Below are positions 5,724 through 55,173 of a stretch of DNA of 55,173 nucleotides, piece by piece. The stretch's first letter is position 1. Each line of letters begins with the position of its first letter. The notes beneath the pieces were generated by a model. That model had not been told where the DNA came from. It ran no database searches and was given only the letters and a program-made list of their open reading frames with translations. The position numbers were made by a program, and so were the translations under genes. Location: the NCBI GenBank assembly GCA_043803165.1, contig JAZDKI010000020.1:1-55173 (forward strand), in the 5' to 3' direction. The DNA comes from Candidatus Micrarchaeota archaeon (GTDB lineage: Archaea > Micrarchaeota > Micrarchaeia > Anstonellales > Bilamarchaeaceae).

Positions 5724-6272
5724 ATGGGAGAAAGGACGTCCGGCCGGCTCAGGGGGCAGGCCGCTGTCAAGAGAACCCCGTTCTCAACCCGCAGCCTGCG
5801 CGGGCAGGCCGCGGTCGAATACCTGACCACCTACGGCTGGGCCCTGCTCGCCCTGGTGATCGTCATCGCCATCCTTGTATCGACCGGGATCTTCTCGCCT
5901 TCTTATCTTGTGGCTGAAGAGTGCAGCTTCGGGAACAACCTGAAATGCGAGGCGGCGGTATTCAACTCGGGCCCGGTCACGGATGTGCGCTTCAGCCTCT
6001 TCAACGGCCTTCCATACAAGGTGAAGGTGGTCTCGGTGAACCTCCAGACGGCGGAAGGGATCAGCGTCGACGGCTTCCCGCAAAACATCGAACTCGACAG
6101 CGGCGAGAAGTTCCTCTATGAAGGGACGACGAGCGAGCAGATACCGACAGGTGCCGTGAAGCGCTTCTCCGGGAACATCACTTATGTCTCATGCGCCAGC
6201 GAGCTCGGGCCCGAATGCAGCACCGTAGAGCATCCGTTATCCGGAAGGATGACCGCCAGAGTGATCGAATAA
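5724..6272 (+). CDS. archaeal type IV pilin-like protein (class III signal peptide)
   Basis: The sequence RGQAAVEYLTTYGWALLALVIVIAILV matches the class III signal pattern: a basic leader, G/Q cleavage context, E at +5 and a hydrophobic helix. The true start is uncertain because an RGQAAV motif occurs twice. Confidence 0.7.
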   Translation: MGERTSGRLRGQAAVKRTPFSTRSLRGQAAVEYLTTYGWALLALVIVIAILVSTGIFSPSYLVAEECSFGNNLKCEAAVFNSGPVTDVRFSLFNGLPYKVKVVSVNLQTAEGISVDGFPQNIELDSGEKFLYEGTTSEQIPTGAVKRFSGNITYVSCASELGPECSTVEHPLSGRMTARVIE

Positions 6273-9646: not shown

Positions 9647-10336
9647 CTATTTCTGGGCGATCGCGGCCTTAGGTTCGGATATCACTACCGGATCCGCGAA
9701 AAGCCTTCCGTTCACTGCGGTGGCCCCGTAGACCAGGAAGCCGTCGCTTCTTTTGCCAAGGACATTCCCGTTCTTATCCAGCGGGAAGATGTAGGCGGTC
9801 GTATAATTGGCCTTGCCCCCATCGAGGTCCATAGTCCCCCTTTCGATTAGGAACTTGACCCTTGCGACGCTTTCCCCGGCAGTTTCCTTGACAAGCGCGA
9901 CGAAATCTGTGAGGTTCGCACCTCTGAGTTTCCCATTGCTAGATACGGTTAAATTCTTCAGATTCGGTTCGATGCTGACAACGAACATGGCTTCTCTCGC
10001 AACCGTGATGCCATGGAAATATTTGTATCCATTCGAAGCACAGGCCAGTTTCTCGTTTGTGCTGTATCTTGCAGTTTCCTTCTCAAGCTGCGCGATCGTC
10101 CTATCCAGCTTATAACCCTGGACCTTCGTGCTGCCGATCATCGTCATGGCAACGTTCTGCGCTCTCGCTTCCCTTACCGGGTATGATACTGGAGAAAAAG
10201 CTAATCCAAACGCCAATCCGGCAGCAAGCACCGCAGCTCCTGCACGCTTCCAAAATCCCCTTTTAGGCATTACGGAATCCGTTTCCCTCGGTTCCTGCCT
10301 TTTCGGAGCGTTTTCGAGTCTTTTCATTTCCCCCAC
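9647..10336 (-). CDS. hypothetical membrane-anchored or secreted protein
   Basis: The N-terminus has a basic stretch followed by a hydrophobic helix (AGAAVLAAGLAFGLAFSPV). The rest looks beta-rich and has no recognised domain. Confidence 0.6.
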   Translation of the reverse strand: MGEMKRLENAPKRQEPRETDSVMPKRGFWKRAGAAVLAAGLAFGLAFSPVSYPVREARAQNVAMTMIGSTKVQGYKLDRTIAQLEKETARYSTNEKLACASNGYKYFHGITVAREAMFVVSIEPNLKNLTVSSNGKLRGANLTDFVALVKETAGESVARVKFLIERGTMDLDGGKANYTTAYIFPLDKNGNVLGKRSDGFLVYGATAVNGRLFADPVVISEPKAAIAQK

Positions 10337-27868: not shown

Positions 27869-28435
27869 ATGCTCGTAGTCTTCGAAGGGATAGACGGTTG
27901 CGGGAAGGACACCCAGATCAAGCTGCTTCTCGAGAAGCACCCTGAGGCCGTCGTCTTCAAGTATCCGACCAAGAACTTCCAGATGCTAAACGACTATCTG
28001 GAGAAGAAGCTCGAGCTTGCCCCCACATCCCTTTTCCTCCTTTTCCTCTCGGACATCGCGAACGAGCAGGCGAAAGTGAAGGCGGCCCTCGAGACCGGCA
28101 AGATGGTGGTATTGGACAGGTATGTCTTCTCCACGATAGCCTATGAGCTCAACGAGCTCCATTATCCGCAGGCGAAGAAGATCGTCGAAGGGATAAACTT
28201 CATCAAGCCCGACTGCGTATTGCTGCTCGACATAACCCCCGAGGTCTCACAGGAGAGGAAAAGCAGGCAGAAGCAGCTCGACCGGTATGAGGAGAACAGG
28301 GAATACCTCCGCAGGGTGCGGGAAGACTTCATCAGGCTCGAAGAGGAAAAGTTTTTAACACCGAATTGGCACAAGATAGATGCGACAAAGGGCGTGGAGG
28401 AAGTGTTTTCAAAGATCCTGCGCGTCCTGAAGTAG
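27869..28435 (+). CDS. tmk: thymidylate kinase
   Basis: The P-loop MLVVFEGIDGCGKDTQ and the DRY motif (VLDRYVFS) are present. Length is 188 aa. Confidence 0.85.
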   Translation: MLVVFEGIDGCGKDTQIKLLLEKHPEAVVFKYPTKNFQMLNDYLEKKLELAPTSLFLLFLSDIANEQAKVKAALETGKMVVLDRYVFSTIAYELNELHYPQAKKIVEGINFIKPDCVLLLDITPEVSQERKSRQKQLDRYEENREYLRRVREDFIRLEEEKFLTPNWHKIDATKGVEEVFSKILRVLK

Positions 28436-28439
28436 CAAA

Positions 28440-28671
28440 GCTCCGTTCGTCTAGAGGCCTTTTGGCTTCTGCATCTCTCATGCCAAAAGCCCTGGGAAAA
28501 TGCGTGAGGCAGAAAAAGTCGGAAGGCCGGGCTGACCGGTCAAGGATAGTGGACTTTCAAGCACCTTTTTGAAAAAAGGTGCTCCAAAGACTTTATTATA
28601 AGTTTTGGGGCGCCTTTTACCAAAAGGCGCAAAGTCCTCCATCGACCTGGGTTCAAATCCCAGACGGAGCA
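28440..28671 (+). tRNA. tRNA-Glu(UUC) interrupted by two introns (D-loop and anticodon loop)
   Basis: Acceptor GCTCCGT (28440-28446) pairs perfectly with ACGGAGC (28664-28670), followed by discriminator A. The T arm is CTGGG-TTCAAAT-CCCAG (28647-28663). The D stem is GTCT/GGAT. The anticodon arm GTGGA-CTTTCAA (28549-28560) closes with TCCAT (28638-28642), giving anticodon TTC. This fold needs removal of about 80 nt in the D loop (~28460-28540) and about 77 nt at or next to position 37/38 (~28560-28637). The mature length is about 75 nt, and no CCA is encoded. Confidence 0.7.
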
Positions 28672-28732
28672 TCCCACTTTTTTGAAAAAAGTGGGGTCAA
28701 AAACAGATTGTTTGTCGACCCTCAGGGTCGAC

Positions 28733-29560
28733 CTAATCCCCTTTCCTTAATAGGAACAACTTGCCCATTCCATACTCAAGCTCGTCCTGCCCCTCCAGCC
28801 TGAGTCCTGCCGCTTCTGCCATCTCAATGTTGGGGGCAGGCTCGTTCTCTAGAACGAAATGCACGACGCATCCATCCGCGTTCACCAATCTCCCAAAGTG
28901 CTCCTGGGCATTAAACTCAATGAACTCTTTTATCTCTCCATATAACGGCATGTCTGTGATATGTTCGCCCTGCCTCGCAAGAATATTCCAATTAAGCTGA
29001 TGTGTTGAAGATCCTAGAGGGAACCCGAAGAACATGGAAGTAAAAACGATGTCGAATTCCCCAATATCCCTTCTTACGTTTTCATCTAATTCATAAAGAG
29101 AAACCGGTATGAACCGCCTTCCTTCCTCATGGTCGCGCATAAGACTTGGACTTAGGGCTGGATCCACTCCGACATATGAAGATAAATTGATCCCCAATCC
29201 TCTCAATATCTTGAGTACTTCGGTCTCTCTATTCTCGGTCGGCCCACAACCGACATCTATCAAACTCTTCCCTTCCAGTGCGCCGACGAGCACTGAGAGC
29301 TTGCGCAGCAATTTCTCCCCCCTGTAGGAACCTATAGAAACACCCTTGCCAGGTATCTGCCAACTATAGTTTATCGGATCTGGTGATAGCTTCAGCGAAT
29401 TGAGTAGCCGTGCAATCCTGGCGACTCCATCCGGCATCCTGGGGGTTATCTCGATGGGCTTGCGCTGCGATACCACACATCTTCTTAGGATGCAAAGTCT
29501 TATAATAACACTTTTAGCAACTATAAACCGGAATTTCCCGAAAGCACTATTAAATTTCAT
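28733..29560 (-). CDS. SAM-dependent methyltransferase-like protein
   Basis: The motif I-like sequence SLIDVGCGPTE and a downstream acidic/VGVDP block suggest a methyltransferase. GC is lower than in neighbouring genes. The N-terminal 40 aa are doubtful, and an internal start at MPDGVARIA is possible. Confidence 0.5.
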   Translation of the reverse strand: MKFNSAFGKFRFIVAKSVIIRLCILRRCVVSQRKPIEITPRMPDGVARIARLLNSLKLSPDPINYSWQIPGKGVSIGSYRGEKLLRKLSVLVGALEGKSLIDVGCGPTENRETEVLKILRGLGINLSSYVGVDPALSPSLMRDHEEGRRFIPVSLYELDENVRRDIGEFDIVFTSMFFGFPLGSSTHQLNWNILARQGEHITDMPLYGEIKEFIEFNAQEHFGRLVNADGCVVHFVLENEPAPNIEMAEAAGLRLEGQDELEYGMGKLFLLRKGD

Positions 29561-29565
29561 GCGAA

Positions 29566-29766
29566 TTGTTGGGGTCTATGCGCATCCTGATAATAGCGCT
29601 TCTCATGTTTCCGCTATCGCTAGCGGTAAACACCACATACCGCCTCGACATGTCCATGGCATACACATGCCCCGGCGACATCCTTTGGGTGAATGCCGCT
29701 GCTTCGAACGGCGATCCAGCGCCCGATTTGGAGCTCCGCCTTCACGTTCCTAATGCTTATCGCTAG
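29566..29766 (+). pseudogene. 5' fragment of a paralog of the 32231-32821 secreted-protein gene
   Basis: MRILIIALLMFPLSLAVNTTYRLDMSMAYTCPGDILWVNAAASNGDPAPDLELRL aligns with MRLFAISLLMFSVSLAANTTYRLDLEMHAECPGDMLIVDAVASNGEPAPDVELRL. Similarity ends at about 29745, and a stop follows at 29764. Confidence 0.65.
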
Positions 29767-30053
29767 TTCATCAAATGATTTTCTAATGGCTTCAAGTTGA
29801 GCCAGATTGATTACTTTGAGTATATCATTTTTGTTTATCTTCACCATCATTCCCACCTCATGCATCCAAGATACGGTTCTTCATCCGTAAAAGCAAGTAT
29901 AGTAGGTGGGTCCGTAAAAAGCTTTAGACTTATCGGGATGGTTTATATTCTTAATGATGGTGTAGAATATTATCAAAATTTACGTCATAAAACAGAGATT
30001 TTAACTCTAGATAGGATTCTCAGACGGAGCATTTTTCTCTCTAAAAGGAGACG

Positions 30054-30064
30054 TTAAAAATATT
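30054..30064 (+). promoter_or_regulatory. TATA-like box (TTAAAAATATT)
   Basis: The box lies 17 nt upstream of the ATG at 30082. Confidence 0.4.
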
Positions 30065-30081
30065 GCATCCCTCATTCCTGC

Positions 30082-30672
30082 ATGGTGCCGAAAAATCTTC
30101 TTCTTTTAGCGGTTTCATTAGCGCTGGTCCTGGCGCTCTTGGGGTGCGTAAGCAAGGAGCAGAGGTACGCGAAGGAACTGAATGACCCCCAGCTATGCAA
30201 CAACCAGTCCCTCGCGGGCGATAGGCTTGAATGCTTCGAATATGTCTCAACTACGCAGAACAAGCCGGAGTATTGCGAATACTACATTGGGAAAAAGGTC
30301 GATTGCTACACCCGCGTCGCCTCAGAGATGGGAAAGCCGGAGGTCTGCGACCATCTGACCGACCCCAAAGAGGTGTACACCTGCAAGGGCATGGTGGGGG
30401 GCGAAATGGCGGTGGATTTCATATCCGATTTCATGGGCGAAAAGGATCCAAAATGCCTGGACGGGTGCTTGGAAAAGCTTAACGAGTGCACTGCCAGATA
30501 CGACAAGGTGTATAATGACGACCTGAAGCGCTGCGCAGAGATCGAGGCGATAGGCGCCAATCCGGATGTTGCCCCGCAGGCCGGCCCCTGCGAGGCCCAA
30601 GCGAAAGAGCATTGGGACACCGGCAAAGACGGCTGCGAGTCGGCCCGAAAGGCCTGCGATGGCACATGCTGA
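30082..30672 (+). CDS. Cys-rich putative lipoprotein
   Basis: The signal ends in the lipobox-like LALLGC. The mature part contains 14 Cys. I recognise no domain. Confidence 0.65.
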   Translation: MVPKNLLLLAVSLALVLALLGCVSKEQRYAKELNDPQLCNNQSLAGDRLECFEYVSTTQNKPEYCEYYIGKKVDCYTRVASEMGKPEVCDHLTDPKEVYTCKGMVGGEMAVDFISDFMGEKDPKCLDGCLEKLNECTARYDKVYNDDLKRCAEIEAIGANPDVAPQAGPCEAQAKEHWDTGKDGCESARKACDGTC

Positions 30673-36429: not shown

Positions 36430-36765
36430 AAAAGCGGGCTTCAGTTCGGCCTGCGGGCCAAATCAGCCCACAACCCGTGAGGCACTACACAGAACCCGAA
36501 ACCTGGGAGTTGTGGGCTTCCCGGTTGGCCCTGACGGATAAACAAGGAGCCTGCGCCATCTGCTCGGTCCTGGGTCTTGCAAGCACGGCACAATAAATTT
36601 AGGGCTGCTCCTTCCGGCCTGACCCGGTTCATCTATTGTCCCGCCACACAAGGCAGGACGTCAGCGCTTAAGGCGCAGGGCATGCCTATCCGGCAAAACG
36701 CCCCGGGCATTCGAGCCGCCTAAGGGGATATGCGGTATCGGGACCCCTAGCCCCGCTCTAGCCCA
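36430..36765 (-). ncRNA. signal recognition particle RNA (7S RNA); ends approximate (+/-30 nt)
   Basis: The minus strand of 36601-36625 reads GGGTCAGGCCGGAAGGAGCAGCCC. This is the universal SRP RNA helix 8 with GGAA tetraloop (compare E. coli 4.5S GGUCAGGUCCGGAAGGAAGCAGCC). An adjacent helix-6-like hairpin reads GTCCTGCC-TTGTGT-GGCGGGAC. Long-range helix-5 pairings are CCCTGCGCC/GGCGCAGG and GGATA/TATCC. A/T-rich boxes lie upstream (36767-36797), and a T4 run marks the 3' end (36430-36433). Confidence 0.7.
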
Positions 36766-36855
36766 CATATATATGCCGATGGCGCTATTTAATTATGCCG
36801 GAATGGCGGGCATGCCATTTATAAAGTGTTTTAGTTAGTATATTAATGTGTAATA

Positions 36856-45730: not shown

Positions 45731-46171
45731 TCAGCACGACGCAGCTGGCAGTTCCCTTCCGGCCCTGGCTTCCGCGGCACTCAGGACCTCGGCGATATCA
45801 TACCTGCCAGCCTCGATCGCGATATCCCTGGCGGTCTCCCCGCAGATGCTCCTCGCCAGCACATCCGCCCCCCTTTCGATGAGAAGCTCCACGATCTCCT
45901 TGTACCTGCCGCCCTTCTCCCCGCCCCGGGCGGCCCACATCAGCTTGGTCAGCGAGTTGGTGTCCCGACCGTTGACATCGGCGCCTTCATTGACGCTTTT
46001 TTCAGCCCGCTCAAAATCCCCCTTCATGCAAGCCATTTTCAAATCTCTATCTATAGGGCGTCTCTGCGTATCCGGGTCAGACGGCGCGGTGCACCGGAAC
46101 CTCCCTGAATCATCTTCCCTTCTGGATTCGGTCAGATCAGGACGCAGCAATCTCTCAGTTCTATGCCTCAT
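45731..46171 (-). CDS. ankyrin-repeat protein
   Basis: Ankyrin-like segments are ACMKGDFERAEKSVNEGADVNGRD, TKLMWAARGGE...IVELLIERGADV and ETARDIAIEAGRYDIAEVL. The N-terminal 45 aa are doubtful. Confidence 0.6.
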   Translation of the reverse strand: MRHRTERLLRPDLTESRREDDSGRFRCTAPSDPDTQRRPIDRDLKMACMKGDFERAEKSVNEGADVNGRDTNSLTKLMWAARGGEKGGRYKEIVELLIERGADVLARSICGETARDIAIEAGRYDIAEVLSAAEARAGRELPAASC

Positions 46172-46268: not shown

Positions 46269-46314
46269 AAAAAAATGCAGGAGGAAGACCCTCCGGGCAG
46301 TTCTGAGGTCTGCA
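46269..46314. repeat. island repeat copy A (5' box + 3' box, 46 bp)
   Basis: The copy reads AAAAAAATGCAGGAGGAAGACCCTCCGGGCAGTTCTGAGGTCTGC. AGACC(C)TC pairs with GAGGTCT as an imperfect inverted repeat. Confidence 0.7.
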
Positions 46315-46430
46315 AGAAAGAGACTATCCTTTCCTTCCGGCGCAGGTAAGGATAAGGGCGGACCTAATCTTTTCCAAAACTAGAGAATAGAAAACCGGCA
46401 TCTTAGCGCCGGAGACAAAAAAGGGAAAAA

Positions 46431-46793
46431 TCAGCCGGCGCTTGTAGAGCCGAAAGCCGCGACGCAATGATCCTTATCGGTCCCTGAGAACCGGTTGCAG
46501 AGCGTCATATCCCCATTGGTCTTGGCCACGGTGCCGTAGCATGACGGGATGTTCGGCAAGTTATCCAGCTGGTCGCACCAGTAGGTGTCTTGCGTGCGTG
46601 CTCCCTCCTCGGCCCTGCAGCCATCTATGCAGAACGAGCCGTTTCCTGAATTTCCAGGCTCGCACTGGGATACGCATCTTTGGAAATTCGCGCTTCCCTG
46701 GCCCTGGGGCGCGGCGGTTCCGTTGCCGGCACCCGGACTGGCGCATCCGGCCAGCATCAACCCTAGAATCAATACGAGACACAATCTTTTCAT
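46431..46793 (-). CDS. small Cys-rich putative lipoprotein
   Basis: The signal is MKRLCLVLILGLMLAGC (lipobox LAGC). The start is set at ATG 46793, although 46814 is possible. The mature part of about 100 aa contains 9 Cys. Confidence 0.65.
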   Translation of the reverse strand: MKRLCLVLILGLMLAGCASPGAGNGTAAPQGQGSANFQRCVSQCEPGNSGNGSFCIDGCRAEEGARTQDTYWCDQLDNLPNIPSCYGTVAKTNGDMTLCNRFSGTDKDHCVAAFGSTSAG

Positions 46794-46838
46794 GATGGCG
46801 GTAGTATCGGGCAAACTCTAATATGCTTTGCCAAAACC

Positions 46839-46997
46839 AAAAAATGCAGGAGGAAGACCCTGAGGCCACGGCTCGGGACAGGACCGTTTAGGCCCCGAGC
46901 CCAAGTCTCGAATCTCGCACCCCGCACAGATACTTGGTTTCAGGTCAGCAGAAACCCCCTGCCGATCCTCCGTTACCGAGGGCTGTTCTGAGGAGAG
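46839..46997. repeat. island repeat copy B (long form, ~159 bp)
   Basis: The 5' box AAAAAATGCAGGAGGAAGACCCT is identical over 23 nt to copy A. A central hairpin GGCTCGGG...CCCGAGCC is present. The 3' box GGGCTGTTCTGAGG (46978-46997) matches copy A GGGCAGTTCTGAGG. Confidence 0.65.
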
Positions 46998-47020
46998 AAT
47001 TATATAAATCTAGCTCTGGC

Positions 47021-47533
47021 TCACATCTTCTGGTATCCGAAGCCTTTTGATTCGTAAACGATCCTTGTTATCTCAGCGACGAAATCCCGGGCATCAGAAA
47101 GCACCCTGTCAGCCTCGGTGGAAGTTATCCCGCCCAACCCATATGAGGCCTTTATCCGTTCGCTTTTTGCATATTCCAGTGAATCGGAATATCTGCTGTC
47201 TAGACTTTTCGCCTTCTTTACGTATTCCAGATATTCTTTATCGACTTTCTGCCGCTTCACATAAAACACTTCGAAGGCAGCTATGGCGCACTCGTGCGAT
47301 CTGGCGTCTATGCCGATCAGCCATATGCTTGCCATAGTAGCATGGTACATGGCGTAATATGCGCAGGAAATCGTCCAGTCGAAGAATTTGTTGTCATTCA
47401 TGAGTTTCGCAGCAATCAGGTTCCTATTGGCCTTCTCCAGATGCTCTTCTGCCTTCTCGATGCTTGCCGGAACCTTCAGCAGCCTTTTAGGCACATTCGC
47501 GGCCCCTTCGAAACAGCGGTCGATCAGATTCAT
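47021..47533 (-). CDS. HEPN-domain protein (toxin partner of MNT)
   Basis: The 170-aa product has HEPN-like helices (AEEHLEKANRNLIAAKLM ... YYAMYHATMASIW ... LDSRYSDS). A 4-nt overlap links it to the upstream nucleotidyltransferase gene. Confidence 0.7.
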   Translation of the reverse strand: MNLIDRCFEGAANVPKRLLKVPASIEKAEEHLEKANRNLIAAKLMNDNKFFDWTISCAYYAMYHATMASIWLIGIDARSHECAIAAFEVFYVKRQKVDKEYLEYVKKAKSLDSRYSDSLEYAKSERIKASYGLGGITSTEADRVLSDARDFVAEITRIVYESKGFGYQKM

Positions 47534-48156
47534 CCCGGTTCACCCATCTCCAGCACATCTCTCCAAAATTCTTCATCCCCGTATAGTATGATGTGGTCCT
47601 GCCACAATGTCGTGTAGACTGGCTCTTTCTTCCATCTCGATTTCAGTTCATCTATCGAGACGGTATGCATCGAGAATCGCCTGCCGCTGAGTGCCTCCAT
47701 CTTCTTTGCCAGATCGTTGAGCTGCTTCTCAAATGCATCATCCTTCTGCTTCAACACGAACAAAAGGTCGATATCGCTCTCTTTCCTGGCTTCGCCTCTC
47801 GCAGCAGAGCCGAAAAGGATCACATACCGGATGCCTGCCGCCCCGGTGTCTTTCGCTATGGCTTGGAGATTGATGCCGATTTTTGGATTCTTTGCGTAAA
47901 ATGCCTGCCGCCGCTCCATCTCCAGCAGGGAGAATATCTTCAAGACCAATTCGTGTTTCCTGTTGAGCGTGTACTCTTTTATCTTGCCTTTCGTCTTGGA
48001 TTCTACGGCCTTTATCTTTTCAAGCTCCTTCAGGTAATGCTGGACCCTCTCGTAGGATAATTCGCAGTCCTTTGCGATTTCCCGGATGTACTTCGCTTTG
48101 GAAGGGGCGAAGAAGAATGGCTTGAGGACGGCTTTCGCGTTGTCTATCGAGACCAT
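47530..48156 (-). CDS. wHTH-fused minimal nucleotidyltransferase (MNT antitoxin-like)
   Basis: The nucleotidyltransferase motif is ILFGSAARGEARKESDIDLLFV. The N-terminal ~100 aa are wHTH-like (IREIAKDCELSYERVQHYLKELEK). Confidence 0.75.
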   Translation of the reverse strand: MVSIDNAKAVLKPFFFAPSKAKYIREIAKDCELSYERVQHYLKELEKIKAVESKTKGKIKEYTLNRKHELVLKIFSLLEMERRQAFYAKNPKIGINLQAIAKDTGAAGIRYVILFGSAARGEARKESDIDLLFVLKQKDDAFEKQLNDLAKKMEALSGRRFSMHTVSIDELKSRWKKEPVYTTLWQDHIILYGDEEFWRDVLEMGEPG

Positions 48157-48198
48157 GACAGAGATAGCACTGGAAAATTATTTAAATCTACTGAATTT

Positions 48199-48214
48199 TC
48201 AATCATATGATTGA
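48199..48214. promoter_or_regulatory. perfect 16-bp palindrome TCAATCATATGATTGA next to the MNT promoter (putative operator)
   Basis: The palindrome lies just upstream of a TATA-like box (48179-48186, minus strand TTTAAATA), 22 nt from the MNT ATG. It is flanked by direct repeats GAATTTTCAATCA and GATTTTCCAATCA. Confidence 0.5.
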
Positions 48215-48313
48215 TTTTCCAATCAATAATTTCCAACCACGCTATTCCTCAACCTTTTACTTTTTTTAGCCATTTCCCATTCTGCAATGCGCTGGAAACT
48301 GGAGAAGAGATAG

Positions 48314-49312
48314 CTACTCCATCGGTGGATAGCATCCGGGCATGAAATCCACTTTATCTTCCCTCGCTATCAGTATGGAATCATAGCTCTTCACAATATC
48401 TCCAAACTTTTCCCTTATCTCCTTCATGTGACTATGGAAGCTCTCGAAATTGGGCACTTCGAATTCCAGTTCGACATCCCAGCTTCCGTATATAGTCACC
48501 ATGTTCAGTATATCACTGTGATATTTGCAATACTCTAAGAATTCGTTTATCCTTTTCTGGTTCATTCCCTTTAGATACACAAATGATTTGCAGAATTCGT
48601 ATCCATATCTGTCCAGGTCGAAACTTATCCTGTATGAGAGTATCACCTTCTGTTGCTCCATCCTCTTTATCCTGTGCCGTACTATCGTCAGACTGGTTTT
48701 CGTAAGTTCCGCTATTTTCGTGAACGACATCCTAGCATTGTTCGCTATTATTTTCAGTATCTCCCTATCCGTCTCGTCCAGCTCCAATTTCTCCGCCTTC
48801 CCGCCTACATCCGATGAGATCGGCTCTTCATCCGTTTTATAGAGCCACTTCCTGTTCTGCTGTATATTATGCTCGGTCGTGCTCACATCCTTCGCGAGTA
48901 TATAGCTGCTGAACATGCTTAAGAAATCCCCAAGGAAGGACTCCTCTAGATCCACTACGTCCTCTGCCCATGCGCCAACTATCATATCCCATCTGCCCGA
49001 AGACATACACGACCATCCATACCGCGGGTGCGCGTGGAGGTAGTCCATCATCTCCTTCTCCGTCTTTTGCGTCATGTTCTGCAGCTGGAGGTAGATTTTG
49101 AAGAAATAATAGCCGAATTTCGCCGTGTTTATTATTGTATAGAATTTGGATATGCGCCCTTTTTCCCGCAACCGCTTAATCCGATAATGCAGCGCTTCCT
49201 TGCTTATGCCTACTTTTCTAGAGAGCGTGCTCAGCGGCATCCTCGAATTTCTGTCCAGGTGGTAGAGTATTCTCCAGTCTGTTTTGTCCAATTCCTTCAT
49301 ATTCCTTAACAT
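48314..49312 (-). CDS. tandem-duplicated Lrp/AsnC-type transcription regulator
   Basis: Two HTH_AsnC-like modules (LDKTDWRILYHLDRNSRMPLSTLSRKVGISKEALHYRIKRL and LDETDREILKIIANNARMSFTKIAELTKTSLTIVRHRIKRM) are each followed by a RAM-like segment. Confidence 0.75.
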   Translation of the reverse strand: MLRNMKELDKTDWRILYHLDRNSRMPLSTLSRKVGISKEALHYRIKRLREKGRISKFYTIINTAKFGYYFFKIYLQLQNMTQKTEKEMMDYLHAHPRYGWSCMSSGRWDMIVGAWAEDVVDLEESFLGDFLSMFSSYILAKDVSTTEHNIQQNRKWLYKTDEEPISSDVGGKAEKLELDETDREILKIIANNARMSFTKIAELTKTSLTIVRHRIKRMEQQKVILSYRISFDLDRYGYEFCKSFVYLKGMNQKRINEFLEYCKYHSDILNMVTIYGSWDVELEFEVPNFESFHSHMKEIREKFGDIVKSYDSILIAREDKVDFMPGCYPPME

Positions 49313-49397
49313 ATTTGTATAATTTTATTAATTTATACATTTTTGTTAAAATTATTTATCGAAACATTTATTATCATGAAAGACACCTACATATCAC

Positions 49398-49955
49398 ATG
49401 AGAGGTATAAGAATTGGACAGGAGATACCCGGGAATGGCGAGCAGCCTAAGCTCGTGTGCGGCAGGCATGGATTCGTAAGGGCACATACGCTCATAAACC
49501 CGCCTTTTGGAGCGAGGGAAATGAACCGGAGGGCAAGGGAATTGCTGAGGAGCCTCGAACGAGTCGATGGAATGGTCAGCAGGGGGAAATTGCCCAAGGA
49601 TTTTGAGGTTCCTTTCTATGGCGACACCGTAAATCCCTCCGCCCTGGGTGAGGAGATTTACGAACGGGCCTTCTATGTTCCTTACACGCCTGCACGGTTG
49701 CTTATTACCACCATGGCAACAATTACACCACTTGCTTTGCTGTCAAATCAAATAGAGCGTCTCGCCTTTCCCACCAATATTATTGTTTTCTTCTCATCCT
49801 TGGCCGGTTGGTCTACACTTGTTTCTTTCGTAGGCTCTTATATCGCAGCTCGCCAAGTCCTTCTTGATGAAACAAGGGAACTGATTTCTTCTCATCCAAT
49901 TCTGGTGGAACTGCCAAAAGCCATTAACAAAGCAATTGAAGCTAGAAATGGCTAG
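49398..49955 (+). CDS. hypothetical membrane protein (weak call)
   Basis: This is the only plus-strand ORF in the array. The C-terminal half has two hydrophobic helices (LLITTMATITPLALL, IIVFFSSLAGWSTLVSFVGSYI). The start is uncertain. Confidence 0.4.
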   Translation: MRGIRIGQEIPGNGEQPKLVCGRHGFVRAHTLINPPFGAREMNRRARELLRSLERVDGMVSRGKLPKDFEVPFYGDTVNPSALGEEIYERAFYVPYTPARLLITTMATITPLALLSNQIERLAFPTNIIVFFSSLAGWSTLVSFVGSYIAARQVLLDETRELISSHPILVELPKAINKAIEARNG

Positions 49956-50150
49956 TGCATACTATGTGACTCATATCTTCGCAGGCCATAGTGAAGATCC
50001 GAGCTCTTAATGAAAAATAGTCCGGGCGTCCTGAGACTAGGCCTCAGAGCACTATCGGCAGGATTCGAGTATTGCTGCGAATCACTAAACCTGCATCTTG
50101 GGTATCTATCCCTTAAACTGTCGTCGAGGATTCTAAAAGAAGAGAAGCAG

Positions 50151-50264
50151 AAAAAATGCAGCAGGAGGGATTCGAGATTATGGTTCGAATCCCTTTCCTA
50201 CTGTCCTGAGCCTACGTTACTATGCAGGAGGAAGGGCCTCAGAGCAGGTCAGAGGTCTGAGCAG
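50151..50264. repeat. island repeat copies C1 and C2
   Basis: C1 (50151-50212) reads AAAAAATGCAGCAGGAGGGATTCGAGATTATGGTTCGAATCCC...TGTCCTGAGCC. C2 (50222-50264) reads ATGCAGGAGGAAGGGCCTCAGAGCAGGTCAGAGGTCTGAGCAG. Confidence 0.65.
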
Positions 50265-50286
50265 CCCCTTTCGACCAAATCTATGG

Positions 50287-51660
50287 TTAGCGTCTATATT
50301 CTTCAATAAACGAAGCAAGCGTATAACCCAAGAATTGCGGCAAACTGCGGTTCTCCAATGCGCGGTAATAATTCTGTTTCGATTTTTCCAGTATCGTTAT
50401 CGGCAGGTATCCCCGTTGCTTCAGGATGTGATTCATTAAAAGGCGGCCGACCCTCCCATTCCCATCTTCGAAGGGATGGATCATCTCGAACTCCATATGG
50501 AATATCGATGCCAATACGAATGGGTGTGCCGTGTCCTTGTTCTGGGCATACCACTCGATCAGGATCCTCATCCGTTCCTTGACGTGCTGCGGGGGGGTTG
50601 TCGGGCTGCTTGGCTTCACATAATTGTAGAATCGTTTATATTCGCCCGGATTATCTGCGATATCCTTCTGCACCATGAAATGGAGCTCTTGGATAAGCCC
50701 CTCGCTGATATCTTCTTTCACCTTGAGCTTGAGGAATCGGAGGGCATGCCTGATATTCGAAGTTTCATGAAGCTCTCGTTTCGAGATCCTCTCCGGTCTC
50801 TTGCCGTTTTTCAGATACCGGTCGACATCCTTCTCGCTCATCGTGTTGCCTTCGATGCTATTGGTATTGTAGATATATTTCCGTTCCCACTGGTCGAACA
50901 AAGCGGCGCGTATCGGCTCGTCCAATGCATTCAGGAAAAGCAGGTACTCTTTTGTGACCTGATCGGCATTCTTCAGCAAGTCGTTCAACCGCTGGTCAGG
51001 AACGAATCCGGATGATTTGGACAAAACCTCGATGTCGGCGTTCGCAGAATACGCCTGATCGCATATCCGGACCACCTCTGGTTCGCTTTCGACAGGTTTC
51101 ACACTGATCCGGGATTTCGTGAGATCGGTCCGCTCTATGGTTTTCTGGAAATCTATCAGGTTATAGCTTGGTTTAAGGTCATGGTATTCCAGCAGGGAAG
51201 AGACCAAGGCCTCATTTATCTTGAGGCAATATGCCGAAGGCCGCTTTGACAACCTGAGGACAATCCTCAGAGGGATCGCGATATGTTCCATCCGGTTTAT
51301 CTGGCTCTGAGAGAACATTTTCCGGCTTTCAGGGAGTTTATGGCATAATTTGGTCAGGATATCCCTGAAAGTCGGCGTCAACAAGAGGTGGAACCTCTCC
51401 GGCGTCATGGCCTGGAGATCGAGGATGATGCGCAGTTTTTCGTTGGCTTTGTTCACTATATATGTCCCGGAATGTGTTTTCTGGATGAGATTCTCTCCTG
51501 CCAGCTCTTTCAGGTAGGTGTATACGTTGGGAAGGGAGATCCCGGTTTTCTTTGAGATATCGTTAGGACTGGCGGCTCCGGTGCTCTCGAATAGCATCTT
51601 GAGGATATCGAATTTTCTCATAATTGTTGTTATGGCATTACTATATATAAATATATGCAT
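50287..51660 (-). CDS. wHTH-Fic domain protein (class II-like, internal inhibitory motif)
   Basis: The Fic motif is HPFEDGNGRVGRLLMNHIL. An upstream TNSIEGN matches the (S/T)xxxE(G/N) inhibitory-helix pattern. The N-terminal wHTH is ISKKTGISLPNVYTYLKELAGENLI. Confidence 0.8.
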   Translation of the reverse strand: MHIFIYSNAITTIMRKFDILKMLFESTGAASPNDISKKTGISLPNVYTYLKELAGENLIQKTHSGTYIVNKANEKLRIILDLQAMTPERFHLLLTPTFRDILTKLCHKLPESRKMFSQSQINRMEHIAIPLRIVLRLSKRPSAYCLKINEALVSSLLEYHDLKPSYNLIDFQKTIERTDLTKSRISVKPVESEPEVVRICDQAYSANADIEVLSKSSGFVPDQRLNDLLKNADQVTKEYLLFLNALDEPIRAALFDQWERKYIYNTNSIEGNTMSEKDVDRYLKNGKRPERISKRELHETSNIRHALRFLKLKVKEDISEGLIQELHFMVQKDIADNPGEYKRFYNYVKPSSPTTPPQHVKERMRILIEWYAQNKDTAHPFVLASIFHMEFEMIHPFEDGNGRVGRLLMNHILKQRGYLPITILEKSKQNYYRALENRSLPQFLGYTLASFIEEYRR

Positions 51661-51906
51661 TTAGGGCTAAATATAGCTAAATCTGCTTTAATTGATGAAA
51701 ATTATATACAGATAGATGTACTGTGTGCGTAGGTAACACTTATCCAAAAGTGAATAATATAATCCACAAATGCATGTGGTTTCCATCCGGCGTTGTGACC
51801 TATATGCCTACAAAATATCTGTCTATGCAAAATGTAGACATACGCATGGCATTTTTGTAGTGGGGAATAATTTTCGTTATTTTCGTTTTTGAGTCACCAC
51901 TACGAG

Positions 51907-51936
51907 AAGACCCTCTGAACAGCTCTGAGGTCTGAC
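51907..51936. repeat. island repeat copy D (short form), abutting a stop codon
   Basis: The copy reads GAAGACCCTCTGAACAGCTCTGAGGTCTGA. It ends 2 nt from the stop (51939-51941) of the 339-aa gene. Confidence 0.6.
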
Positions 51937-51938
51937 CC

Positions 51939-52958
51939 TTATTTGAGAAAGGAAGTCGTTTCTGGTTCAGAGGTAAAACTGGGAATCTCAATGCGTCCTC
52001 GCAATCTAAGCCAGTTCTCAACAATCGTGTCAATGAATTGCCCGATTAAAGGTGCCTGCCATGCGAAATATTTCGAGGCTTCGTTCATGCGCTGCTCGGG
52101 GGATCTATCATCCATTGGTCGATGAGGATCGATTCCACTATAGCAGAGCACGATCTTCATCTTACGGATATAATCCCAAAAAGCTTCTTTGCCTCCAGGT
52201 CCGTGATAAATCCATGGCAGGGCAAAAATGGACGTGACCCTGTTGTTATGGTAGACTGTTTCCCCATAGCAAATCGATGGCGGCGGCCGGTATTCTGCAG
52301 TAGCAAATACAGGAGATGAGACATCCTGATTTTCAGGAATCGAGTGGGGGTCAGGCAGTTCTAACGCCCGTCGTATGACTTCGGCCATATGCTCGTATCT
52401 GTTGGGGTAAAACGAGGGAGGAAGCATCTCGCTTGTCGGAAGAAGAAAGCCTTCAGAATTGCACAAATCGAGGACACCCGCATCCCCGATAATCGGTCGT
52501 ATCCCGTTATCGATCGTCATCTTCAATAAGGACCACATCAGTCTGTTTGCTGGATCTTGGGTAAAATATCGTTCGAGGTGATGTATCGCCCCGCAAGAAT
52601 CTTGATTTATCGCGCCCATCTTTCCCTCGCCTTGGAAATGCGACCTGAGTCTATCTGCGATGCGGTAAGGCATATTCCCCCTACAATCCTCAACTCGCTT
52701 CACTTGAGTCGAATGGTAACGTAACCCAGTATCTGACACAACCGATGCGATATAGTTTGCAATCGCATTCCTTGATACCCGCTCTGGGCCAGTCCCCATT
52801 CTCTTACTCAATTCCAAGCGGACCAGGGAGATTAGCGATTTGCCATCGCATGTCTCTCTGTCAATAAATCCGATCAAGACATCGTAATCAAATCTTCTTT
52901 TTAACTCCGGATTCCCCTCTCCTTCGCAACCTAGTCCAGTTCGGCCAATCCTTTTCAT
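51939..52958 (-). CDS. hypothetical protein (339 aa, orphan)
   Basis: A long clean ORF at about 45% GC with no motif I can name. It lies 45 nt downstream of the HTH_10 gene. Confidence 0.65.
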   Translation of the reverse strand: MKRIGRTGLGCEGEGNPELKRRFDYDVLIGFIDRETCDGKSLISLVRLELSKRMGTGPERVSRNAIANYIASVVSDTGLRYHSTQVKRVEDCRGNMPYRIADRLRSHFQGEGKMGAINQDSCGAIHHLERYFTQDPANRLMWSLLKMTIDNGIRPIIGDAGVLDLCNSEGFLLPTSEMLPPSFYPNRYEHMAEVIRRALELPDPHSIPENQDVSSPVFATAEYRPPPSICYGETVYHNNRVTSIFALPWIYHGPGGKEAFWDYIRKMKIVLCYSGIDPHRPMDDRSPEQRMNEASKYFAWQAPLIGQFIDTIVENWLRLRGRIEIPSFTSEPETTSFLK

Positions 52959-53003
52959 GATATTTCATCATCATTTAACACAAAAAAGAATAGCTGACAC
53001 ATG

Positions 53004-53687
53004 TCATGAGGTATATAGATAGTCCAGTAACCAAGGCATGACCTTCCCCTCGGCTTTTCTTATAAGTTCCTGGATGGTCCGCCTTTTACGCCCGCTTTTC
53101 TTCGCCAGTTTTTCCAGGTTATTCACCTTCGGCCAAGAATAATATCCGCTGGCGATAGCGAAAGCGATGGCATCGCGCTGTTTCTGTGTAAGCCCCGGAA
53201 TCGCATTTATCGAAGGAGAGGGACTACCACCATCTTTCACGCGGAAAATCTTGACTTCTCCAATATCTTCGAACTCTTCTATGAGCCTTTTCATAACGTT
53301 CGGCTGCTCAGAAAAAACAGAATAAGCCTCATAGCTCCCCTTGGAGTACGTATTCGAGTAGTACGAGGTCCCGGATTTCATGACCAGTTCATATGACGAA
53401 CAACCGCTCGACTTCCAAGTTATGCCGACCAACGCATCCATTGCGTTTTTTGAAAGAAGTTTTGCGTCCAGCACGCCACTCCTCGACTTCAGGAACTTCA
53501 AATAATCAGATATAGCCGAATCGCAAGCAGAACCGATTTTCCATACGCCTCGACTTACTTTCTTTCCATTTTCTAAAGCACGGATTGATCTCGGCCCCCA
53601 TTCGCAGGAAAAGATATCAGTAAACATATTGATCGAATCGGTATTCCAGCAATTATGATGGTAAACGCCCAATTCGTATAGTTTCAT
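53004..53687 (-). CDS. HTH_10 (bacterio-opsin activator-type) transcription regulator
   Basis: The C-terminal LTQKQRDAIAFAIASGYYSWPKVNNLEKLAKKSGRKRRTIQELIRKAEGKV is the HTH_10 signature (LT.rQ...l..A...GYy..PR). Confidence 0.7.
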   Translation of the reverse strand: MKLYELGVYHHNCWNTDSINMFTDIFSCEWGPRSIRALENGKKVSRGVWKIGSACDSAISDYLKFLKSRSGVLDAKLLSKNAMDALVGITWKSSGCSSYELVMKSGTSYYSNTYSKGSYEAYSVFSEQPNVMKRLIEEFEDIGEVKIFRVKDGGSPSPSINAIPGLTQKQRDAIAFAIASGYYSWPKVNNLEKLAKKSGRKRRTIQELIRKAEGKVMPWLLDYLYTS

Positions 53688-54037
53688 ACCTCTATCGATG
53701 TCTATATCGTGTTAAAAAACTATCTTTCATGGATGTGGACATCTCTTGTCTACTTTTTTGAAGGGAATGACCTAGGCCTCAGAGACATTTATTAATCTCT
53801 CTTCTCAGACCCTCTCTCGGCGGATGGAACATATCTGGCTAAACTTAGAAAGATCATCTGAGAGCTACTGGTAGGTAATAGGAGAATCGAAAAATAATTG
53901 AACTTGTAACCGCCGGATGGCTGTCGCAGGTTATTGCCGAAGGCAGTCAGATTATCCGGCTGATAAGGATGGCACATGAAGTTCAAAGATTAATCTGTAA
54001 TGCTATAATTCATCTACTGCCCATTGATCGCTACATA

Positions 54038-54724
54038 TCAAACTGAGAATATTACCTCATAACATGTAGTTGCACCTGTAGCTTCTTTCATTTTCATCGC
54101 GGCATCCTTCATTGCGCCCTTTAATATGTCCGCCGAAACGCTTGCCGGATGATAAATCAGCATAAGAACCTCTTTTGTGCCGAGTGTGATGCAAGTTCTT
54201 CGGGAATCAGCAGTTGGCCCTCCGAAAGCTCCCTTGGCGTCACTTGTGATGATCCGGTTTTCTACATTGATCGGTTTCCCGCTAATGCCTTCATACGTCT
54301 GTCCTGGCTGCCCTATGGTTAAGGTGATGGTCTCTCCTTCGAGTTTAGCCATATCGTAGACCCCGCATGGATACGCGGTCCGGAGCGATATCACATTATT
54401 GGTATCAACCACGGTATTTATTCGGTAAAGTCCCTGTCCTCCAACAATCCTGCGTATCAACGCCTCTCCAGATGCCCTTTCTTTCGTAGGATCCAAGCCT
54501 GCCTTGGAAAATATGGCGCGGATTCCTTTTATCACAGGGTCATCTGAGATCGATTTGGTGTCCTTGAACCTGTTGGAAACAGAACGAGAAGCCTCTTTTA
54601 TTGCCTGATCCACAATTGAATTATTCTGTTCAGTACGGACGCCAATGAAGTGTATACAACCGATGCCCAAGCCAGCGAGTTTCTCCCGTGTGCTTTCCTC
54701 AACATTAATAGTGAATGTTTTCAT
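54038..54724 (-). CDS. B3/B4 (PheRS beta-like tRNA-binding) domain protein
   Basis: The 228-aa product has IRAIFSKAGLDPTKERASGEALIRRI ... INTVVDTNNVISLRTAYPCGVYD ... ITLTIG, which matches the stand-alone B3_4 family pattern. Confidence 0.6.
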   Translation of the reverse strand: MKTFTINVEESTREKLAGLGIGCIHFIGVRTEQNNSIVDQAIKEASRSVSNRFKDTKSISDDPVIKGIRAIFSKAGLDPTKERASGEALIRRIVGGQGLYRINTVVDTNNVISLRTAYPCGVYDMAKLEGETITLTIGQPGQTYEGISGKPINVENRIITSDAKGAFGGPTADSRRTCITLGTKEVLMLIYHPASVSADILKGAMKDAAMKMKEATGATTCYEVIFSV

Positions 54725-54779
54725 ATCTCTGTATTCCGGAAACAGTCTTTTAATTCTCTGGCCCTCAGATGAGAAATCG

Positions 54780-55173
54780 GCAAGATGGATGTGATCTGGA
54801 AAACTTAGACGATGGCAATCTTTGATTGCCAGATGTGAGCCGCATCAGCGGATCACAAGAGATCTGAAAGCGCTAAGGCAGGATTTGAGACCATGGCGAA
54901 CCAGCAAGGCTGGTTTGCCAATAGTGGAACGCGATAAGCGTTCCACTGCTGATCTGAGGTCCGATTGAACGGCGAACCGTTCAATGGACCAGCGAACGAA
55001 GCGTCGTTCGCTCGGTCATCACGAAAGTGCTACCTCAGAGCATGGCAAACTCGGTTTGCCAGAATTGACCGATAAGGTCAATAAAGATCTGAATGCAGGA
55101 GGAACACGGCTAGGACAATCCTAGAGTCTGAACCTCAGCGGATACCGCAAAATCGGCATATCGGACAGTCTGT
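54780..55173. other. ORF-free run of at least 9 stem-loops with a repeated unit ending in GATCTGA; truncated by the window end
   Basis: Hairpins are at 54814-54830, 54840-54851, 54894-54920, 54923-54947, 54958-54990, 54991-55012, 55043-55061, 55064-55082 and 55110-55124. GATCTG occurs at 54793, 54861, 54951 and 55086. Island repeat copy E (ATGCAGGAGGAAC...) is at 55093-55139. No ORF of 60 aa or more occurs in any frame. Confidence 0.6.

Follow-up and report, generated by a model that had tools for sequence, protein, structure and literature searches.

The 55,173-bp contig JAZDKI010000020.1 of a Candidatus Micrarchaeota archaeon (assembly GCA_043803165.1), referred to here as the window, was analyzed as a whole, and both of its borders are contig ends. 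Beyond 46.2 kb it carries a low-GC array of accessory genes separated by copies of a short repeated unit, which a sequence-only reading had taken for an integron-like cassette array. Our analysis indicates that this segment is probably the left-hand part of an integration hotspot anchored at a tRNA-Leu(CAA) gene, composed of stacked integrative elements and their remnants, and not an integron. The repeated unit appears to serve as attachment (att) site for XerA-like integrases of about 400 amino acids (aa), a Micrarchaeota family with a C-terminal zinc ribbon and an intact R-K-H-R-W-Y catalytic set. Support for this reading comes from the window itself and from loci on other Micrarchaeota contigs (labeled L008 to L096).

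An unbiased repeat search of the window recovered a 38-nucleotide (nt) family at positions 46275, 46844, 50222, 51897, and 55093, with the 5′ box alone at 50153, giving six co-oriented motif copies, all located after 46.2 kb. An nhmmer profile of the units likewise detected window copies from 46275 onward only, all on the plus strand. Allowing up to three mismatches, the 18-mer 5′ box has three matches in the window against 0.12 expected, and none of 100 shuffled sequences reached three. The shared motif family in the spacers is therefore real, and it bounds one- to three-gene modules as had been proposed. The original list of copies holds for units A, B, C1, C2, D, and E, but two further candidates, C0 (50031-50050) and F (53768-53820), fall outside the family by score; the latter shows a weak inverted match (E = 0.12) to the end of the long B-type unit only. 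Unit D possesses the palindrome (31.8 bits in nhmmer), but the first 9 nt of its supposed full 5′ box are absent. Of the two boxes said to be missing from the first 46 kb, TGCAGGAGG was indeed not found there, whereas GAGGTCTG has occurrences at 30340 and 35641; taken by itself, the 3′ box is no commoner than chance predicts (12 matches against 12.1 expected). Unit A (46.9 bits) is the leftmost att copy and borders GC-normal DNA, and units E and C1 share just the 5′ box with the family, their hairpins being different.

The 5′ box, (A)TGCAGGAGGAAG(G), has a length of 13-14 nt and corresponds, as reverse complement, to the final 13 nt of a tRNA-Leu(CAA) gene that contains an intron. It covers the 3′ strand of the T stem, the 3′ strand of the acceptor stem, and the discriminator base, with the tRNA gene on the opposite strand. 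The 13-mer TGCAGGAGGAAGG stands in this relation to the tRNA-Leu genes of two contigs, L089 and L037. The L089 gene is an intron-containing class II tRNA (Rfam, 41.5 bits) that ends in ...GGUUCAAAUCCUUCCUCCUGCA and whose anticodon was read as CAA, identifying it as tRNA-Leu; it carries no element and represents an empty site. If the box is a tRNA-Leu 3′ end, an intact tRNA-Leu on the opposite strand is predicted to close an array on the side toward which the units point, and this is what L037 displays. There an intact tRNA-Leu (42.9 bits) has a 3′ end that corresponds exactly to the identity block, and its box is abutted on the left by the ...CAGATCTGA arm that usually flanks integrase-proximal units. 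A type-1 unit lies 2.9 kb to the left of this tRNA, at 7444, with two integrase-less genes on the opposite strand between them, and ordinary chromosomal genes follow on the right. The same identity accounts for the A-run that precedes many units as the oligo-T terminator of the tRNA. In addition to the empty tRNA-Leu of L089, gene order in the closest syntenic relative, L087, is kept up to the ankyrin gene, after which there is no island, although this comparison is a distant one (the NFACT proteins are 69% identical). An intron of some 110 nt lies at the anticodon loop in the tRNA-Leu(CAA) genes of both L089 and L037; these genes were missed by ARAGORN in its default mode but found by the Rfam tRNA model. 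ARAGORN reports no tRNA in the window, a result to be read with its failure on these intron-containing genes.

Outside the window, the unit is tied to integrase genes. When 185,579 species genomes were searched for the 5′ box, 25 loci were obtained, roughly as many as chance would give; five of these are Micrarchaeota metagenome-assembled genomes (MAGs) with GC contents of 0.39-0.57, four of which carry the whole 38-nt unit almost unchanged, while the fifth (L012) has a variant 3′ part designated type 2. A metagenome scan contributed six type-1 and two type-2 loci among 54 matches, and viral-contig scans yielded no true unit and no tRNA-Leu junction. At seven distinct loci, comprising nine integrase genes, a co-oriented unit lies 60-110 nt upstream of the integrase. 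It precedes a Phage_integrase gene in L021/L090 (twice), L027/L028, L066, and L084, and it occurs in a degenerate form with a variant identity block in L026 and L029/L030; all units within any one locus share one orientation. The interpretation of the motif as the recombination site of a tyrosine recombinase is thus upheld, and copies mapped beyond the window are linked to integrase genes in other Micrarchaeota contigs. The variant block, (A/G)TGCAGGGGAAG, is found beside related integrases in L026, L029, and L091, as would be expected if these relatives target a tRNA with a different acceptor stem; its sequence implies a putative target tRNA with the acceptor 3′ strand CCCCTGC, and att site and target may co-vary within a single integrase family.

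The integrase was characterized through the 400-aa protein of L021, a homologue of the integrase predicted past the window end, which is preceded by a unit at a distance of about 70 nt. This protein matches Pfam Phage_integrase (6.5e-21), and its catalytic residues can be read as R (CRIGEL), K (GKTG), H-x-x-R (HLFRHSR), W (GW), and Y (TYVH), together with a CxxC..CxxC motif in a C-terminal zinc ribbon. Its best model is NCBIfam recomb_XerA_Arch, at 102 bits against a cut-off of 220, and the closest solved structure is that of Pyrococcus abyssi XerA (PDB 4a8e). In contrast, the integron-integrase model integrase_gron (TIGR02249), whose cut-off is 265 bits, gives 49 bits over model positions 81-164 of 315, and similarity to IntI4 (PDB 2a3v) is limited to residues 130-202. 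Close homologues number more than 100, many of them with the zinc ribbon PF13240, and every taxonomic name given for them is micrarchaeal. The genes occur in several copies per contig, with at least two integrase pairs sharing a contig (P0015 with P0059, P0016 with P0075), and near cargo such as Cdc6-like and TraG/DUF87 ATPases. A reading of the unit as a dif site served by XerA itself was considered and rejected on the basis of copy number, context, and score.

Distribution also bears on the possibility that the unit is a generic hairpin and oligo-T terminator common to many genes. On the coding strand, units A, B, and C1 read as a hairpin, CTTCCTCCTGCAT, and T6-7 (the A6-7 runs lie directly before these units, confirming an earlier observation), and the units are found just downstream of stop codons, so they may end cargo transcripts as a side effect. 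However, units C2, D, and E have no T-run, the conserved 13-mer is a tRNA 3′ end, and the copies are associated with integrase genes, in the orientation that places them upstream of int. No unit was found in about 140 kb of non-island Micrarchaeota DNA, a set consisting of window 1-46 kb, L087, L089 minus its tRNA, the flanks of L026 and L027, L094, and L096. A shared terminator, the first alternative offered by the sequence-only reading, fails on this distribution and is very improbable as an explanation of the family. Its second alternative, decayed miniature inverted-repeat transposable elements (MITEs) or other non-autonomous transposons inserted repeatedly into an AT-rich accessory region, would account for short repeated copies with internal inverted repeats, and for a longer B-type variant that is conserved between genomes with different neighbors. 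Yet no terminal inverted repeats bound the unit, there are no target-site duplications and no transposase, strict co-orientation is not expected from transposition, and the links to a tyrosine integrase and to a tRNA 3′ end explain the copies better. We consider a MITE origin hardly credible.

The second half of the type-1 unit is an imperfect palindrome, CCTCWGAG-CAG-CTCTGAGG, bordered by AGRC and GTCT, the left side having an additional base. An inverted repeat with a bulge, AGACC-C-TC/GAGGTCT, had been noted from the sequence and does exist in the type-1 copies, and the single unpaired base is retained as C or G depending on the unit, a feature that is not diagnostic by itself. Alignment of 19 distinct units gave the consensus ATGCAGGAGGAAGGCCCTCTGAGCAGnTCTGAGGTCTGA. 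In this alignment 83% of the cells are paired as proposed, the same share as in shuffled sequences; compensatory changes are confined to two cells, and at one of the pairs 14 of the 19 units have a mismatch. The palindrome therefore appears to be maintained as sequence and not as a fold. The window copies, treated as single-stranded DNA, fold no better than shuffled sequences (z of +0.3 to -1.6), with the exception of C1 (z of -3.1 and -4.2), so the expectation of a conserved secondary structure was not realized. Because the palindrome adjoins the identity block and precedes seven of the nine integrase genes examined (the other two, in L091, have diverged sites), it is presumed to be the core-binding site of the integrase.

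Under the hotspot model, strand exchange would take place within the identity block, next to this presumed binding site; in complete elements the unit is followed by a leader of about 70 nt and then by the int gene. Each integration event would regenerate the tRNA gene at the right end and leave a displaced tRNA 3′ fragment on the left, and repeated integration at one site would stack elements head to tail in a single orientation. The elements are small, with int pointing one way and one to three cargo genes converging on it, such as toxin-antitoxin or defense-type pairs, Fic, and regulators. The modules of the window may then be derivatives that lost their integrase, or satellites moved in trans by an integrase located past the contig end. 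The window array is predicted to close with a minus-strand, intron-containing tRNA-Leu(CAA) ending in ...CCTTCCTCCTGCA, the 3′ end of this predicted gene being CCUUCCUCCUGCA.

In L021/L090, chromosomal genes are followed by a unit, Fic, a long unit, and integrase 1; next come AbiEii, AbiEi, and a small gene, all three on the opposite strand, and then another unit and integrase 2. Within this array, units bound a mini-element of int with AbiEii/AbiEi and a 105-aa gene. A second mini-element, in L091, comprises int, HEPN/MNT, and a 128-aa gene and is bounded by diverged sites with the variant block. In complete mini-elements, which are 3-3.5 kb in size, the cargo converges on the integrase, and head-to-tail stacking of this convergent design places all cargo on the strand opposite the units. 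The HEPN and MNT proteins of the window are 81% and 53% identical, respectively, to the L091 cargo, and thus the window module between B and C1 looks like such an element minus its integrase. Integrase genes lie inside the unit-bounded arrays of L090 (two), L091 (two), and L029 (three), which indicates that the integrase is part of the mobile modules and not of a fixed platform. The L029 locus contains three tyrosine recombinase genes in a row within 9 kb, two of which are preceded by unit-like sites, and Cdc6-like and TraG/DUF87 ATPase genes follow; this suggests a larger plasmid- or virus-like integrated element.

Many stretches between units lack an integrase. Directly oriented units bound such modules in the window (A-B, B-C1, C2-D, and D-E) and in L027, L037, and L066, and integrase-less modules of one to three genes, mostly on the strand opposite to the units, are present in the window, L019, L027, L037, L066, and L081. 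At many loci the unit lies 3-135 nt past the 3′ end of the opposite-strand cargo gene. These regularities speak for an integron-like platform, in which a resident integrase and a primary site would capture and excise integrase-less cassettes, with the unit acting as attC. An A-run of its own precedes the identity block in each of modules A, B, and C1, cargo diverges from the predicted integrase as it does in integrons, a conserved 5′ box with at least five different 3′ parts resembles the conserved ends and variable center of attC sites, and the unpaired base of the palindrome is retained. Against this, the integrase is XerA-like and fails the integron-integrase model, the 19-unit alignment contains no RYYYAAC/GTTRRRY core sites, and the fold tests and the conservation of sequence across genomes do not agree with a structural site. 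In addition, integrases recur inside the arrays, the conserved box is a tRNA fragment, and one array closes with the tRNA gene. Neither of the closest Fic homologues (67% and 64% identical) is accompanied by a unit, although this test is weak at such divergence, and the same Fic cassette was not found in the other arrays tested. The integron or attC cassette array of the sequence-only reading is accordingly not supported, and we regard an integron-like platform as unlikely. In L094 (1455-2054 and ~4700-5230), the closest Fic homologue converges on an unrelated 297-aa tyrosine integrase that adjoins another intron-containing tRNA, with reverse-transcriptase (RVT_1) fragments upstream, and the second-closest sits among housekeeping genes; different micrarchaeal elements thus seem to carry Fic genes repeatedly as cargo.

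At its right end, the window resembles integrase-upstream DNA of L026 and other loci over the final 310 nt, with the order 33-nt module (AGATCTGAAAGCGCTAAGGCAGGATTTGAGACC), variable hairpins, AGATCTGA, box, hairpin, GTCTGA, and leader hairpin, and the contig stops about 25 nt before the position of the integrase ATG elsewhere. Only the leader is thus present in the window, and, judging from this upstream match, the recombinase that had been expected beyond 55173 probably follows just past that position. A break here, shared with the L028 contig, is expected inside the repeated unit-leader-integrase sequence. The junction of arm, identity block, and palindrome-leader-int, such as an excised circle carrying attP would have, is found in window unit E, L026, L027, and L066, although tandem copies explain it equally well. 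In L026, and at two places in L090, the 33-nt module likewise precedes integrase-proximal units; 0 to about 190 nt of short hairpins separate it from the unit, and it is read as the putative far arm of the next element. On its other strand (GGTCTCAAATCCTGCCCTAGCGC) the module resembles a degraded tRNA T-arm and acceptor end, and it may represent an older att relic or an arm-type binding region.

Across loci, the 3′ part that follows the 5′ box exists in at least five different versions. The B-type, type-2, C1, and E versions are best seen as element-specific arms of different elements that use one tRNA block. The B-type unit, of about 160 nt, is 79% identical over about 190 nt between the window and L021/L090, where its neighbors differ: it is followed by the HEPN 3′ end in the window and by a degenerate unit and integrase in L090, and the GC contents of the two genomes differ. 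In the type-2 unit, which is probably the arm of another element family on the same tRNA, the tRNA-derived box is followed by GGNCCTCCGTANNTAGTACAGTRCAGA and some 60 further conserved bases, and two copies carry a 55-nt insertion of two hairpins. Rfam searches of the island and related loci returned no family for the units, including the B-type and type-2 units. The B-type and type-2 units were considered as small RNA genes with their own minus-strand TATA box, but RNAalifold showed no covariation, and this idea was dropped because the B-like unit of L090 lies right after the Fic stop codon, making its A/T-rich end the 3′ flank of a gene. Complete type-1 units can also be read on the plus strand as a 12-codon open reading frame (ORF), MQEE[DG]P[QL]S[SR]SE[VA] plus a stop codon; a peptide gene was rejected, the ORF being judged a by-product of the tRNA-derived block and the palindrome.

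Several observations count against the tRNA-Leu hotspot. Neither a tRNA nor an integrase lies in the window, both being predicted beyond the contig end, and a tblastn search of the window for integrase remnants found none. Serial integration predicts a single junction between an A-run and the identity block, at the far left, whereas the window has three (A, B, and C1), as if each integrase-less module carried its own A-run. The regular distance of the units from cargo 3′ ends is tidier than random deletion of integrases would leave. A 13-mer with up to two mismatches is expected about 0.7 times by chance in 62 kb, so the tRNA argument rests on the exact 3′-end register and on the L037 junction, and L037 and L089 are the one direct unit-to-tRNA junction and the one empty site found. 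Finally, a tRNA-Leu att site leaves the 160-nt B-type unit and the 33-nt module unexplained. The modules might alternatively be a distinct class of minimal mobile cassettes, not remnants, with their own att site (tRNA block, palindrome, and oligo-A), which a XerA-like zinc-ribbon integrase would capture, excise, and reshuffle in trans and which would be stockpiled at tRNA-Leu, a variant to which we assign a small share of the probability. Were it correct, the array would be a convergent, tRNA-anchored analogue of integrons in DPANN archaea, with another recombinase and another site.

The array coincides with a change in composition. In 1-kb windows, GC content stays at 0.53-0.63 through the first 46 kb, except for a small dip at 28-30 kb, and then ranges from 0.44 to 0.49 between 47 kb and the contig end, the mean falling from about 0.57 to about 0.46, in agreement with the drop originally placed at about 46.9 kb. 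Eight of the nine island genes are on the minus strand, as first described, and Pfam agrees with the cargo labels given from the sequence (Table 1), with three island genes having no Pfam match. The duplicated Lrp/AsnC regulator has a 27%-identical homologue that adjoins a unit in L032, and a 45%-identical homologue of the Cys-rich gene between units A and B lies in chromosomal DNA of normal GC in L091. The dip at 28-30 kb is a second, small low-GC patch, in which neither a unit nor a tRNA was found. The signal recognition particle (SRP) RNA of the window matches the bacterial large SRP model best, at 85.9 bits, though the contig is archaeal.

Table 1. Positions of units, associated sequences, and genes in the window and in related Micrarchaeota contigs.
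Feature	Contig	Position	Strand	Description
Unit A	window	46269-46313	+	A7, identity block (ATGCAGGAGGAAG, 46275-46287), type-1 palindrome ending in GAGGTCTG
Unit B, long B-type	window	46839-47012	+	A6, identity block, about 115 nt, then GGGCTGTTCTGAGGAGAGAATTATATAAAT
Unit C1	window	50151-50212	+	A6, variant block ATGCAG(CAG)GAGG, own 9-10 bp palindrome GGGATTCGA..TCGAATCCC
Unit C2	window	50222-50260	+	Complete type-1 unit; 44.9 bits in nhmmer; 26 nt past Fic stop codon
Unit D	window	51906-51935	+	Type-1 palindrome; only last 4 nt of identity block (GAAG); 3 nt from stop codon of 339-aa gene
Unit E	window	55093-55173	+	Identity block (ATGCAGGAGGAAC), hairpin CTAGGA-CAA-TCCTAG, GAGTCTGAAC, start of integrase leader
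tRNA-Leu	L089	16608-16798	-	Empty site
tRNA-Leu	L037	10358-10548	-	Intact, at array end
B-type unit	L090	6190-6375		Box, ~115 nt, GTTCTGAGRRGAGAAYTATATAAAT; same as L021 copy
B-type unit	L021	7870-7690	-	Same as L090 copy
Type-2 unit	L012	502-522, 2134-2154
Type-2 unit	L019	1758-1778
Type-2 unit	L038	106-126
Type-2 unit	L061	8977-8997
Variant block (A/G)TGCAGGGGAAG	L026	9877-9915
Variant block (A/G)TGCAGGGGAAG	L029	2081-2150, 9877-9915
Variant block (A/G)TGCAGGGGAAG	L091	~9705, ~13110
12-codon ORF	window	46275-46313, 50222-50260	+	First copy (unit A) without stop codon
12-codon ORF	L008, L019, L021, L023		+	In units
33-nt module	window	54860-54892	+	AGATCTGAAAGCGCTAAGGCAGGATTTGAGACC
33-nt module	L026	~9800-9832		AGATCTGAAAGCGCTARGGCAGGATTTGAGACC
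33-nt module	L090	~4911-4940, ~6125-6145		AGATCTGAAAGCGCTARGGCAGGATTTGAGACC
Short-hairpin run	window	54893-55092	+	Ends in AGATCTGA, usual left flank of integrase-proximal units
Ankyrin gene	window	45731-46171		GC-normal DNA left of unit A
Cys-rich gene	window	46431-46793	-	Small, secreted or lipoprotein-like; normal GC; between units A and B
HEPN	window	47021-47533	-	Pfam
Winged helix-turn-helix (wHTH)-nucleotidyltransferase (MNT)	window	47530-48156	-	Pfam NTP_transf_2 with wHTH; PADLOC candidates PDC-M05A, PDC-S09
Duplicated Lrp/AsnC regulator	window	48314-49312	-	Pfam
185-aa ORF	window	49398-49955	+	No family match; sole plus-strand gene of array
wHTH-Fic	window	50287-51621	-	Pfam; PADLOC matches SoFic / PDC-S04
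339-aa orphan	window	51939-52958	-	Cargo gene
HTH_10 protein	window	53004-53687	-	Pfam
B3_4-domain protein	window	54038-54724	-	Pfam
Tyrosine recombinase genes	L029	2202-3314, 8253-8834, 9986-11179		Three in a row
Low-GC patch	window	28300-30100		GC 0.36-0.52
275-aa ORF	window	28733-29560	-	In low-GC patch; no Pfam match
SRP RNA	window	36512-36766	-	Rfam

A literature search found no account of integrative elements in Micrarchaeota or of the att site and target that such elements use, although absence is not thereby proven. Small genomes and dependence on a host characterize the Micrarchaeota, which belong to the DPANN archaea; for them the present result supplies an integrase family, an att site at the nucleotide level, and a chromosomal target. 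Knowledge of att site, integrase, and target lets elements and their defense or toxin-antitoxin cargo be delimited in fragmented MAGs, and the repeated unit-leader-integrase sequence explains why such contigs break where they do. The small size of the elements and the many integrase-less modules hint at mobilization in trans, which, if true, would constitute a second, independent route to integron-like stockpiling. At gene ends, a conserved box with a variable hairpin may represent an att repeat of tRNA origin instead of attC.

A comparison with known systems shows both shared features and disparities. Archaeal integrons (Ghaly et al. 2022, PMC9668308) are defined by the IntI-specific domain together with attC sites detected by HattCI/IntegronFinder, and the word Micrarchaeota does not occur in the main text of that report. 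Like integrons, the array is co-oriented and would have a tyrosine recombinase at one end, with toxin-antitoxin-like cargo diverging from the recombinase, and its short modules end in a site that has an imperfect inverted repeat with one unpaired base. Unlike integrons, it lacks an IntI-specific domain and attC core sites, the site is conserved by sequence and not by structure and is derived from a tRNA, and the integrase recurs inside arrays within modules. The XerA/dif system and the elements that exploit Xer (IMEX, pdif) are similar in that the integrase is nearest to XerA and the site contains an inverted repeat around a short spacer. The integrase differs from XerA in scoring 102 bits against 220 and in being present in several copies per contig beside mobile-element cargo, and the site is a tRNA 3′ end plus palindrome as opposed to the 28-bp dif. 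In bacteria, accretion arrays with cis-mobilizable elements (CIMEs) are represented by ICESt1 and ICESt3 of Streptococcus thermophilus. As in CIMEs, integrase-less modules lie between functional-looking att sites in tandem with integrase-bearing relatives, and such modules could be excised or co-mobilized by the integrase of a neighbor. Unlike the CIMEs of ICESt1/ICESt3, the array is archaeal, the window contains no conjugation genes, and the modules, of one to three genes, are much smaller.

The closest parallels are found among the tRNA-associated elements of archaea, for which classical integrases with the gene intact beside att, att sites of 8-60 bp, and tandem integration have been described (PMC8371274). 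As in classical pNOB8-type elements (PMC8371274; Islander concept, PMC4383910), the int gene is intact beside att; the identity block is the 3′ end of a tRNA; an intact tRNA at one end is accompanied by displaced direct-repeat fragments; and elements stack at one site in a low-GC island with accessory or defense-type cargo. The present elements differ from these in the host phylum, Micrarchaeota, in the 13-14 nt block at the extreme 3′ end of an intron-containing tRNA-Leu, in the conserved palindrome that adjoins this block, and in the C-terminal zinc ribbon of the integrase. Their size, 3-3.5 kb, is unusually small, and an integrase is missing from many modules. Taken together, the array is best described as a tRNA-anchored tandem set of small integrative elements and their integrase-less derivatives, of a known kind but in an unusual host.

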